64,000 bases of DNA from a bacterium (lineage in GTDB: Bacteria; Zhuqueibacterota; Zhuqueibacteria; Residuimicrobiales; Krinioviventaceae). The stretch spans positions 1,718,252 through 1,782,251 of the forward strand of contig OY843751.1 in assembly GCA_963693055.1 (NCBI GenBank), written 5' to 3'. Both the position numbers and the translations under genes were made by a program. This document shows, one piece after another, positions 45,293 to 48,994 of this stretch (position 1 is the stretch's first letter; the number at the start of each line of letters is the position of its first letter). The notes under the pieces are model-generated. The model made no database searches and was not told the DNA's origin. It worked only from the letters and a program-made list of their open reading frames with translations.

Positions 45293-46015
45293 ATGGATTT
45301 TATGTTTCTCGGTAAAAAAGTATTGTTTTTCAGCCTGGCCCTGCTAACCGGTTTGTTTATTACACAGGCCATTATAGAAGCACATTCACCAGAACCCGAA
45401 AGTTTTGATGATGTTGTATTAATTGAAAATAATATGGAAACAGTGGAGGATAAAGAATCCGTTAATACCTTGATCAGGTCAAGTATTCAGGAATGGGTGG
45501 GTGAAACAGAAGATAATATGGTATCCATAAATTCCCCCATAATATCAACTGTTCTTGAATCCAGAAATGAAAAAGGGACTCCTTTTGCCTATGTATCTGC
45601 AAACAGAATTTTTATTGTAGACCACAAAGGTAAATTGCTGGCCCCGGCTGACTCGCTTGGATTTCATGATTTACCCATTATTTCAGGTGATTCGCTAAAA
45701 ATTTATTCGTCAACTTTTCGACTAGCCGGTGACGGTGTTAGTGATGCGTTAAATCTGATCAAAAATGCACAAAAACAAGGTACTATTGTATACAGTAATC
45801 TTTCGGAAATCAACATTCAACCAAAATTGGGATTGGTTGTTTATAGTAATATTTCCAAGGGATTGCCATTAATTGTAGGAAGTGGAAGCATAGAAAAAAA
45901 GATTCGGAACTTGAGAACATTTATCCAGGAATTTGGAGATTCAAAGTTACTGACCCAAACCCGTTATCTGGATTTACGTCTGGATGGACAAATTATTCTT
46001 AAAAAACGGGTGTAA
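45293..46015 (+). CDS. ftsQ: Cell division protein FtsQ/DivIB-like (TM plus POTRA)
   Basis: N-terminal TM helix, POTRA-like region; position between murG and ftsA. Confidence 0.65.
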   Translation: MDFMFLGKKVLFFSLALLTGLFITQAIIEAHSPEPESFDDVVLIENNMETVEDKESVNTLIRSSIQEWVGETEDNMVSINSPIISTVLESRNEKGTPFAYVSANRIFIVDHKGKLLAPADSLGFHDLPIISGDSLKIYSSTFRLAGDGVSDALNLIKNAQKQGTIVYSNLSEINIQPKLGLVVYSNISKGLPLIVGSGSIEKKIRNLRTFIQEFGDSKLLTQTRYLDLRLDGQIILKKRV

Positions 46016-46052: not shown

Positions 46053-47297
46053 ATGGAAGCTATGGATATAATTACCGGTCTTGATATCGGTACAACAAAA
46101 ATTGGTTGTTTTATAGCAGAAATCGGGCCAACCGGTCGATTGAAAATCATCGGTGTGAGCACTGTACCTTCTGATGGTTTGCGATATGGAGTAGTAGTGG
46201 ATATTGATAAAACCGTCGTGTCAATCCGTAATGCCATTAAAAAAGCTGAAGAAATGGCAGGAATTGAGGTAGATCTGGTTTTTGCGGGTATTGCGGGAGA
46301 TCATATTCGCAGTATTAATGGAAGAGGTGTAGTTGCAATATCCGGAGAAAATGGAGAAGTATCATCAGATGATGTTCGCCGGGTAATAGATGCTGCAAAA
46401 GCAGTTGCGCTGCCTATAGACAGAGAGATAATTCATATTTTACCGCAGGAATTTATCGTTGACGATCAGCGTGGAATTCGTGACCCGGTCGGTATGAAAG
46501 GTGTTCGTCTTGAAGCCGAAGTTCACATTGTTACCGGTGCAATTGCATCGGCGCAGAACATTCATCGCTGTATTGAGCGTGCGGGTTATGGCGTTGCAGA
46601 TCTTGTATTGGAACCGTTAGCTTCAAGTTTTTCTGTCTTGACCGATGATGAGAAAGAGTTGGGTGTAATTCTTATTGATATTGGTGGCGGAACAAGTGAT
46701 ATAGCCATGTTTTATGAGGGTTGTATTCGTCATACCTCTGTTGTGGCTTTGGGCGGCAGGAATGTAACCAATGATCTTGCAATTGTGTTAAGAACACCAC
46801 TAGACGCGGCAGAAAAATTAAAGATAAATCACAGCAGTGTACTTCACGAAGAAGATGATAAAGATAAAATTGTTGAAGTTGCAGGTGTAAACAATAGAGC
46901 ACCTCGCAAGATTTCTAAAGGACTGTTGGTTGACATTGTTCAACCTCGTCTGGTAGAGATATTGACACTGTGTTATGAAGAAGTACGCAAATCAGATTAT
47001 ATTAATTTAATGACTACAGGACTGGTACTTACTGGTGGTGGTTCGATGATACCAGGAACAGTAGAGCTTGCAGAAGATATTTTTAATATGCCTGTAAAAA
47101 TTGGCATTCCACAGGGTTTCTCTGGTCTTGTAGAAGAGGCCCAGAATCCCAAATTTGCAACAGGTGTAGGACTGGTTCAATATGGTTATTTGCACCATGG
47201 AGAAATATTTGAAGCATTGGAAGGTGAAGAAGGAATTTTTGATTCGATCAAAAAACGTTTTCGCCGTTGGTTTGGTAGCGTAACCACTATGTATTAA
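46053..47297 (+). CDS. ftsA: Cell division protein FtsA (actin-like ATPase)
   Basis: GLDIGTTKIGCFIAE, DIGGGTSDIAMF actin-fold motifs. Confidence 0.9.
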   Translation: MEAMDIITGLDIGTTKIGCFIAEIGPTGRLKIIGVSTVPSDGLRYGVVVDIDKTVVSIRNAIKKAEEMAGIEVDLVFAGIAGDHIRSINGRGVVAISGENGEVSSDDVRRVIDAAKAVALPIDREIIHILPQEFIVDDQRGIRDPVGMKGVRLEAEVHIVTGAIASAQNIHRCIERAGYGVADLVLEPLASSFSVLTDDEKELGVILIDIGGGTSDIAMFYEGCIRHTSVVALGGRNVTNDLAIVLRTPLDAAEKLKINHSSVLHEEDDKDKIVEVAGVNNRAPRKISKGLLVDIVQPRLVEILTLCYEEVRKSDYINLMTTGLVLTGGGSMIPGTVELAEDIFNMPVKIGIPQGFSGLVEEAQNPKFATGVGLVQYGYLHHGEIFEALEGEEGIFDSIKKRFRRWFGSVTTMY

Positions 47298-47311
47298 AAT
47301 TGAGGTTTATT

Positions 47312-47518
47312 ATGAATTTTACCGAATTTGAATCTTTTGAAAATGTAACAATTCCTATGAGCTTGATTGAAGATACGCTCGAATTGCTATTGAATCCTAA
47401 ACGCATCATTTCGGATTCAAATGAAATTGTTTTGGATTGGAATAAACGGACCGAGGTTTATAACCGTTTATTTGATGTGATGAAAAAGTGCAGCAGTACA
47501 GAACTTTTGAATAGTTAA
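47312..47518 (+). CDS. Small acidic hypothetical protein between ftsA and ftsZ
   Basis: 68-aa ORF from ATG at 47312 (ORF-track alternative start 47300) with GAGG RBS, starting 15 bp after ftsA; no recognisable family. Confidence 0.4.
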   Translation: MNFTEFESFENVTIPMSLIEDTLELLLNPKRIISDSNEIVLDWNKRTEVYNRLFDVMKKCSSTELLNS

Positions 47519-47602
47519 TTAATACCCTAATGATTGAAATTTTCGGTTTAGGCTGGTGTTGGGTCCAGCCATGTCCGTATAATTAAATAAAAGGAGTGGG
47601 CT

Positions 47603-48994
47603 ATGAGTAATATGACATTTGATTTTGATGATAGCCGCCAGAATGGCGCTATACTTAAAGTTGTTGGTGTTGGTGGTGCCGGAGGTAACGCAATTAACCG
47701 TATGATTGCCGAAGGTCTTGCAGGTGTAGAGTTTATTGGTATTAATACTGATGAACAGGCACTGAACCTTTGTAAAGCACCTGGTAAAGTATATGTTGGT
47801 ACCAAATCTACACAAGGATTGGGTGCCGGCGCTGATCCGGAAAAAGGTAAACGCGCGGTAGAAGAAGACCGTAATGCCGTATATGATTATCTTTCTGATG
47901 CAGATATGGTATTCATTGCTGCAGGAATGGGTGGTGGTACCGGAACAGGAGCCTCGCCTATTGTTGCAGAAATTGCCAAAGATATTGGTGCTTTAACCGT
48001 AGGTATTGTTACAACTCCATTTATTTTTGAAGGCCCAAAACGCATCCAACGAGCAGAAGAAGGAATAAATGAACTTAAAGAACGTGTAGACACCTTGATT
48101 GTTATTCCAAATCAGCGCTTGCTTACTATAGTTCCTAAAAATACACCACTAGATGCTGGTTTTAGATATGCTGATGAGATCCTGTTTAATGCAACAAAAG
48201 GTATTTCTGATTTGATCACAATACCCGGTTTGATTAACCTTGACTTTGCCGATGTTCGCACAATCATGAGTGAAATGGGAGACGCTCTGATGGGTTGCGG
48301 TCAGGCTTCCGGAGAAGACCGTGCAAAAATTGCTGCACAACAGGCAATTAATAGTCCATTGTTGGAAGATGTTAGCATTTCAGGTGCATTGGGAGTACTT
48401 GTAAATATTACCGGTGGTTCAGAAATGAGTTTGCATGAAGTAAATGAAGCTGCCAGTATTATATCGGAAGAAGCAGGACCAAAAGCGAATGTTATTTTTG
48501 GTTCAGTTATTGATAATACTTTGGACGAAGAGATTCGCATCACTGTAATTGCAACCGGATTAGCATCGCAACGTGGGAAAAAACGTTTTGGTATGTATGG
48601 TCAATTAAACCGCCCAAAATATGAAACACATAGCCCCTCAGGCTCAGAAAATATTGATCCTCGTGAGATTCCGGCATATGATAGAATTGAAAAAATAAAT
48701 GAAAAAATGAACCAGAGTGCTAATATAGATATGCAATCTGTGAATCAGGCTAAAAAAATGAATCAACCTCGATATGAAGAGCCTAAACCAGAACCAACAC
48801 CAAAACCCGAATCCCGTTTTGAGCACGTAGATCATACCAGTAATATGAATCATGATAATGGTTCAAATGGGTACGGAAGTTCTTCAAACGGTTCTAATGG
48901 ATATGACAAGCCTGCGAATGGATATACTAATGATGATTATCAAATCCCGGCATATAAACGTAAAAAATGGAATATGTTTGGTGATTTGGATTAA
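47603..48994 (+). CDS. ftsZ: Cell division GTPase FtsZ with long C-terminal linker
   Basis: [15 protein letters not shown] tubulin signature, GTGTGASP T7 loop, extended disordered C-terminus. Confidence 0.95.

Follow-up and report, generated by a model that had tools for sequence, protein, structure and literature searches.

The window (the whole stretch of 64,000 nucleotides that was analysed, taken from contig OY843751.1 of assembly GCA_963693055.1) carries a dcw-type division cluster on its + strand, with the gene order …murG-ftsQ-ftsA-ORF-ftsZ. Its features are listed in Table 1. The flanking genes had been named ftsA and ftsZ in a preliminary description of this DNA, and their Pfam matches bear this out; ftsA ends with a TAA stop codon at 47295-47297. 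The protein in the FtsQ slot matches no Pfam family at E ≤ 1, and its orthologues in relatives have just weak FtsQ_DivIB_C matches, so it is best regarded as a very divergent FtsQ. No terminator-like site was found in 46800-47900, a region covering both the ftsA-ORF and the ORF-ftsZ gaps. A scan for sigma-70 promoters, whose consensus may not be that of KSB1, returned 4 sites compared with 3.9 expected by chance, and the ftsZ promoter therefore cannot be placed.

Table 1. Features at the ftsA-ftsZ junction, in window coordinates
Feature	Position	Strand	Basis or remark
FtsQ-like gene, 240-aa product	45293..46015	+	At FtsQ position of cluster
ftsA, 414 aa, upstream neighbour	46053..47297	+	Pfam FtsA 1.7e-47, SHS2_FTSA 6.7e-34
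Shine-Dalgarno GAGG of small gene	47302..47305	+	6 nt before ATG
Small gene, 68 aa, acidic, undescribed family	47312..47518	+	Orthologues, synteny, dN/dS, codon-usage likelihood
Conserved core, residues 13-56, TIPxxLIEDTLELLLNPKRIISxSxEIVLDWNKRTxVYxRL	47348..47479	+	Alignments A1, A4, A5
Predicted secondary structure: helix 16-27, beta-hairpin 31-40, helix 43-67 (its start lies in the core)			AlphaFold
Tryptic peptide of small protein, IISDSNEIVLDWNK
ftsZ-leader hairpin, 6-bp stem, loop UGUUGGGU	47551..47570	+	UUGGG loop conserved, stems co-vary
Constrained ftsZ leader, Shine-Dalgarno AGGAG (47592-47596) inside conserved GGAGTGGG	47571..47602	+
ftsZ, 463 aa, downstream neighbour	47603..48994	+	Pfam Tubulin 6.7e-47, FtsZ_C 1.4e-34
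FtsZ C-terminal peptide with xMFG(D)LD extension after W	48944..48991	+	Extension in ORF-bearing loci only

The small gene is best read from the ATG at 47312, and its stop codon ends at 47518, giving a product of 68 aa. The preliminary description had reported an acidic 68-aa ORF with a plausible ribosome-binding site, which agrees with the GAGG motif and the pI of 4.5. It had placed the start at 47300; however, the codon there is an in-frame TTG that would yield 72 aa and overlaps the Shine-Dalgarno sequence, which makes it an unlikely start. Of the two spacings it gave, the 84 bp to ftsZ (from the stop of the small gene to the ATG at 47603) is correct, whereas the distance after the ftsA stop is 14 nt rather than 15 bp. 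GAGG also lies 6 to 8 nt 5′ of the ATG in the six loci compared, and in L095 and L096 as well. Nor is the gene quite as unannotated as it had looked, since the orthologue carried by GCA_016934825.1 is deposited as “hypothetical protein JXQ31_15680” (candidate division KSB1 bacterium).

A word-indexed search of 5.8 billion proteins with the small protein as the query yielded four homologues of 69 to 71 aa with 60 to 71% identity, and a profile search extended the family to 12 orthologue clusters (at 90% identity) of 67 to 71 aa; the profile E values of all orthologues range from 1e-27 to 1e-32. Alignment A1 of the orthologues has 30 invariant core columns, and the family core, P-x-x-L-x-E-[DE]-x-[LI]-x-[LF]-L-L-N-P-K-R-I-x-S-x-x-x-E-x-V-L-D-W-x-K-R-T, is present in the proteins of 67 to 71 aa. 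The arrangement ftsA-ORF-ftsZ on the same strand is found in every readable case (window, L001/L006, L004, L005, L007, L008, L092, L095, and L096), and all 10 related loci read from the clade keep the frame, the length, the core sequence, and the same slot.

The small gene is under strong purifying selection at the protein level, with dN/dS of 0.02 to 0.15 (Nei-Gojobori counts, from which pS and pN were also taken). Between the window and L005 it has 15 synonymous and 2 nonsynonymous differences (dN/dS of 0.023), and ftsA has a dN/dS of 0.009 in the same pair. The corresponding values for the small gene are 0.036 for L095 versus L096 and 0.15 for L001 versus L096; L007 and L008 give a pS of 0.79 and a pN of 0.056, and deeper pairs give a pS of 0.8 to 1.0, at which synonymous sites are saturated, with a pN of 0.06 to 0.27. 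Indels are found only in the tails at either end of the protein, always in multiples of three. A codon-usage likelihood trained on the neighbouring dcw genes clearly prefers the annotated frame (frame 0). Conservation in relatives and purifying selection, two of the properties by which the preliminary description proposed that the ORF be judged, are thus both present, and the sequence comparisons indicate that this is almost certainly a real, translated gene.

The product is a small cytoplasmic acidic protein (pI of 4.5 and net charge of −5.5 in the window; pI of 4.3 to 4.7 across the family). Its AlphaFold model has a pLDDT of 83.5 overall and above 90 in the core, and consists of a disordered, variable acidic N-tail followed by a helix, a β-hairpin, and a long helix. 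In Pfam-A, hmmscan matched 0 families at E ≤ 1 for the window protein and four orthologues or paralogues; NCBIfam, PHROGs, and PADLOC contain no family matched by the window protein, and neither a PDB sequence profile search nor a fold comparison gave a match. The Pfam collection includes models for ZapA, ZapB, SepF, MciZ, SulA, Kil, and DicB. No profile of these proteins (PF05164 in the case of ZapA) was matched significantly in Pfam, NCBIfam, or PHROGs, and homology to characterised division proteins or to other families was found in none of Pfam, NCBIfam, PHROGs, PADLOC, and PDB. A full-text search of the published literature found no description of such a gene. The protein therefore belongs to a family present in none of Pfam, NCBIfam, PHROGs, and PADLOC: an undescribed small-protein family, characterised by the module LLLNPKRII…E.V.D, whose gene has a fixed place between ftsA and ftsZ in a single KSB1 lineage.

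The gene is absent outside this lineage. An FtsA-anchored scan retrieved 80 metagenome loci with FtsA 50 to 79% identical to that of the window, and hmmsearch of all gap ORFs detected no family member in their ftsA-ftsZ gaps, which are mostly 10 to 230 nt long and contain no conserved ORF. The small gene was not found in L093 and L094 (FtsA identity of 79 to 80%) either, so that it is missing from 82 more distant or sister ftsA-ftsZ loci in total; in 71 of the 71 ORF-less loci that hold both genes, the junction is a plain spacer without a conserved ORF. Among these spacers, those of L020 (3733-4199; 466 nt, −113.5 kcal/mol) and L021 (3733-3860; stem of about 40 bp, −66.5 kcal/mol), whose FtsA proteins are about 64% identical to that of the window, contain long, near-perfect inverted repeats, which are without an ORF and have nothing to do with the UUGGG hairpin described below. 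A neighbour-joining tree of FtsA and FtsZ groups the ORF-bearing loci in a single clade (bootstrap support of 100%), within which FtsA has diverged by about 20%, and the nearest neighbours, L014 (with a 38-nt spacer), L012, and L013, lack the gene. The gene is thus lineage specific, as had been suggested, being carried by one monophyletic KSB1 subclade and missing from its sisters. The simplest history would be that the subclade ancestor gained the gene once and passed it on vertically.

Exhaustive HMMER profile searching of 1.84 billion representative proteins gave seven matches, namely, three orthologue representatives, three distant relatives, and one repeat artefact (P0008, a 722-aa protein with 12 short stretches of low-complexity tandem repeat, which was discarded); a later profile search added a fourth distant relative, P0017. 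Of the distant relatives, P0009 (80 aa; E value of 5e-7; 42% identity over the aligned core) is a paralogue encoded in the window's own genome, outside the window. Its matches elsewhere are not significant (NCBIfam “GSU3529 family,” E value of 0.13) or just sub-threshold (Cas8c in PADLOC; E value of 0.004, 13.7 bits). A near-identical copy in a sister genome, P0019, belongs to the remains of a prophage (L009 1900-9200) that also encodes a large terminase, an endolysin, a CI-type S24 repressor, and a RecE-like exonuclease; it follows the repressor by about 1.1 kb on the same strand. The neighbours of the L009 copy are a 141-aa protein, which weakly matches a B-box zinc finger, and a 271-aa ORFan. 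In P0010 (284 aa), the module is N terminal to a metallophosphoesterase that matches the phage phosphoesterase phrog_547 (1.5e-36), and in P0011 (159 aa), it is N terminal to a region without an assigned family. P0011 is encoded in a run of about 20 consecutive small ORFs without a Pfam match, adjoining a family-A DNA polymerase (L010 1-12480), and these surroundings, on a 688-kb scaffold, may be a large mobile element or a phage-like region. P0017 (94 aa) has the module followed by hydrophobic segments that presumably span the membrane. Profile scans for the family found none among viral contigs (IMG/VR) and metagenome contigs; this is weak evidence of absence, since the scans depend on patterns.

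These distant relatives, together with the prophage paralogue, indicate that the module is older than the KSB1 subclade and occurs at least partly in mobile or phage contexts. Judging by these relatives, the small gene was probably drawn from the pool of mobile or phage genes. The G+C content of the gene is also lower than that of ftsA and ftsZ (32% versus 40 to 41%), and for both reasons acquisition is favoured over de novo birth. Around the ORF, no integrase, flanking repeats, or scars of insertion were found, and only short chance repeats are present.

Between the small gene and ftsZ lies a hairpin that had already been noticed in the preliminary description; it is real, although it begins 2 nt further to the right than was stated there. 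The hairpin has the loop (G)UUGGG(A/U) and stands 17 to 35 nt ahead of the start codon of ftsZ (in L015, 100 nt). It occurs in the ORF-bearing window, L005, L001, L007, L008, L092, L095, and L096, in L004 with an internal loop, and in the ORF-less relatives L012, L015, L016, and L093; it is hence a separate, older element of the ftsZ leader, and we read the ORF as having probably been inserted upstream of it. The stems remain paired with entirely different sequences (GGCUGG/CCAGCC, GGACAGUCUAU/AUAGAUUGUCU, GGUCAA/UUGACC, and CGGUUAA/UUAACCG, and further UCCGGUUU/AAAUCGGA, CCAAC/GUUGG, and CCGGGC/GUUCGG). Pairs were tabulated per sequence and not by alignment column, because MAFFT alignments A3 and A6 misregister the stems, whose loops vary from 6 to 9 nt. 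By a strict contiguous-stem criterion, 13 of the 16 loci whose FtsA is at least 73% identical have the hairpin, compared with 1 of 62 more distant loci, where it is spurious; it is absent from loci with FtsA at most 65% identical.

The sequence that follows the hairpin is similarly constrained. In relatives with and without the small gene, a near-invariant AT-rich stretch leads to the conserved block that contains the Shine-Dalgarno sequence (AAGGAG in all loci compared), and GGAG.GGG is invariant in alignment A3. Over the 52 nt covering the hairpin and the leader up to the ftsZ ATG, the window and L005 differ by 1 change, a C to U in the stem that converts a G-C pair to G-U, and 33 to 38% of the synonymous sites in the flanking genes differ between the same two genomes. 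An intrinsic (Rho-independent) terminator was considered and is ruled out, since the stem is followed by ATGTCCGTATAATT and no U-tract. Rfam returned for the hairpin and leader only a chance miRNA match on the other strand (E value of 1.3). Folding of the 102 nt from the ORF stop into the ftsZ start (47519-47620) was no better than that of shuffles (z = 0.28), and chance alone supplies the window with many loosely defined TTGGG-loop hairpins (at 35 of its 166 TTGGG sites); the case for the hairpin therefore rests on its orthologous conservation rather than on energy.

In CsrA-type leaders, one GGA lies in a hairpin loop and a second overlaps the Shine-Dalgarno sequence. Several of the relatives resemble these, with GGA in the loop as well as in the Shine-Dalgarno sequence; GGGA is found at the loop or its edge in L001, L007, L008, L012, L015, L016, and L093, whereas the window, L005, and L004 have GGGU, and the window loop contains no GGA. 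A structured element and a conserved Shine-Dalgarno region upstream of ftsZ are also reminiscent of known RNA elements of the ftsA-ftsZ junction and ftsZ leader, such as the RNase E processing in Escherichia coli, but the present hairpin matches no Rfam family. We read it as a probable element for post-transcriptional control or processing of the ftsZ leader.

A second clade-specific change is found at the C terminus of FtsZ. In every ORF-bearing locus, FtsZ ends in …[PA]-[AC]-[YC]-[KR]-R-K-K-W-[NSG]-M-F-G-(D)-[LM]-D, so that a hydrophobic-acidic extension stands beside a basic patch (window, L001, L004, L005, L007, L008, L092, L095, and L096). In the ORF-less sisters L012, L013, L014, L015, L093, and L094, FtsZ stops three residues past the tryptophan (…RRKRWSLL, …RRKKWSSF, and similar ends, with the pattern …R[KRN]RW plus 3 residues), and more distant relatives have an ordinary FtsZ ending in …P[AT]FLR[KR]R…. 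The C terminus of FtsA shows no clade-specific change. The linker that precedes the FtsZ tail contains a low-complexity NGSNGYG(S/N)SS repeat (window 48800-48960 compared with L005 4500-4690), and the 97%-related genome L005 has one extra 10-residue unit (FtsZ of 473 versus 463 aa), which shows that linker length evolves through gain and loss of repeats. In L094 (3811-5165, on the long-read contig ctg95079l), ftsZ is broken into three called ORFs, probably by assembly frameshifts rather than as a pseudogene.

FtsA, ZipA, SepF, ZapD, MinC, and others dock at the extreme C terminus of FtsZ. The acidic small protein complements the basic FtsZ tail in charge, and the appearance of a new FtsZ extension and a new acidic protein on the same branch is suggestive of a partnership. 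Since the tail change and the gain of the ORF map to a single branch, they constitute one evolutionary coincidence and not repeated co-evolution.

The best overall explanation, which we advance tentatively, is that a small protein was acquired, is co-expressed with FtsA and FtsZ, and modulates the Z-ring. The module would have been taken up from the mobile or phage pool in the subclade ancestor, upstream of the leader hairpin that was already there, and then inherited vertically as part of the dcw operon under strong purifying selection. The gene would be co-transcribed with ftsA and ftsZ, and the protein would bind a component of the divisome and so modulate Z-ring assembly in an accessory role. 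As its partner, the basic FtsZ tail with the xMFG(D)LD extension gained in the same clade would be the most likely choice, although this particular pairing is in itself doubtful. The preliminary description had offered a lineage-specific division factor as one of its two readings; the lineage specificity stands, and a role in division, to which we give slightly less than even weight, is suggested by operon position and by the co-occurring change in the FtsZ tail. Operon position as evidence for such a role is only guilt by association, and the relatives outside the dcw cluster have no division contexts (a prophage remnant and phosphoesterase, membrane, and ORFan-region proteins). The most specific version, in which a phage or mobile module was captured into the core division operon and FtsZ then evolved xMFG(D)LD as a docking motif, seems rather improbable. 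If it were true, the small protein would be a previously unknown class of FtsZ-tail-binding regulator, and the prophage paralogue would be a phage tool that acts at the same interface, blocking or hijacking host division.

The main alternative is a hitch-hiking or domesticated mobile-element gene whose function is unrelated to division (e.g., a phage-derived module for immunity, exclusion, or regulation), which would have landed in a permissive ftsA-ftsZ spacer and been retained because it is well served by the strong, constitutive transcription of the dcw genes. The sole paralogue, P0009 (together with the sister copy P0019), sits in a prophage remnant, P0010 joins the module to a phosphoesterase of phage type, the ORF is poorer in G+C than its neighbours, and the family is very rare (7 matches among 1.8 billion representatives), all of which would fit such an origin. 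However, the position is strictly fixed and vertically inherited across the whole divergence of the clade, selection on the gene approaches that on ftsA, no insertion signature is present, and there are no matches in IMG/VR viral contigs, PHROGs, or PADLOC. On balance, we consider a function unrelated to division unlikely.

Far less probable is a trans-acting regulator that binds the UUGGG-loop hairpin and tunes ftsZ translation or mRNA stability. The gene does lie directly 5′ of this conserved, co-varying hairpin and its highly constrained leader, but the hairpin predates the gene, being present in ORF-less loci, and the protein is acidic, with no nucleic-acid-binding family or fold detected; it is therefore a poor candidate for an RNA-binding leader regulator. 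Less probable still is a cis-acting upstream ORF, in which the act of translation matters and the peptide sequence is irrelevant. The ORF is short, directly upstream of ftsZ, and endowed with a good Shine-Dalgarno sequence, yet strong conservation of its amino acid sequence goes together with saturated synonymous sites, and its stop codon is 83 to 158 nt from the ftsZ start. Translational unmasking of the ftsZ Shine-Dalgarno sequence was also considered and is rejected, as RNAduplex energies for its pairing with the region after the stop give no advantage over background (34 to 93% of controls pair equally well or better); such a cis-acting role is thus exceedingly improbable. The other reading of the preliminary description, a spurious ORF in a noncoding regulatory spacer, can draw on the small size, the AT-rich region, and the missing Pfam match but is refuted, because the frame is kept in 12 protein clusters under protein-level selection, indels are in frame and confined to the tails, codon usage favours frame 0, and the protein has a confident folded model; protein-level selection, indels, and codon frame lead us to reject the peptide-independent upstream ORF as well.

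The favoured reading, an acquired modulator of the Z-ring, has counterparts among known division proteins. ZapA, ZapB, ZapC, ZapD, and SepF are small cytoplasmic FtsZ-binding accessory proteins that tune Z-ring assembly; they are nonuniversal and lineage restricted, and ZapD and SepF bind the FtsZ C-terminal peptide. The present protein shares the small size and the lineage restriction, and would share the binding to FtsZ. Lineage-specific small genes in division clusters are already known as a phenomenon. In Firmicutes and Actinobacteria, the ylm genes, sepF, and divIVA lie downstream of ftsZ in the dcw cluster and are co-expressed with it; they are similar in being lineage-specific small genes placed in the division operon, but the present gene lies between ftsA and ftsZ, and the proteins are unrelated.

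The paralogue also invites comparison with the division inhibitors of prophages and phages (lambda Kil, Qin DicB, Rac KilR, and T7 Gp0.4) and of the SOS response (YneA, SosA, and SidA). YneA, SosA, and SidA are encoded beside lexA-type repressors, and the paralogue, too, is a small ORF that follows a repressor (CI/LexA-type, S24) within a prophage remnant; the distant homologue P0017 bears the module on a membrane anchor, a further resemblance to this group. However, there is no sequence similarity to these inhibitors (Pfam, PHROGs), and the dcw copy has a constitutive place in the operon and no repressor beside it.

The ftsA-ftsZ pair is among the most conserved gene junctions in bacteria, and a gene that strong selection has kept in place there ranks as a strong candidate for a new accessory factor of the divisome. 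To our knowledge, the KSB1 phylum has no cultured representatives and no experimental cell biology. Control of ftsZ at the post-transcriptional level is suggested, for this lineage, by the co-varying hairpin and its near-invariant leader. With a dated, single-origin gain, an FtsZ tail that changed to match, and a paralogue linked to phage, the case provides a testable pair of protein and tail, which would offer a way to study how new regulators of the Z-ring arise.
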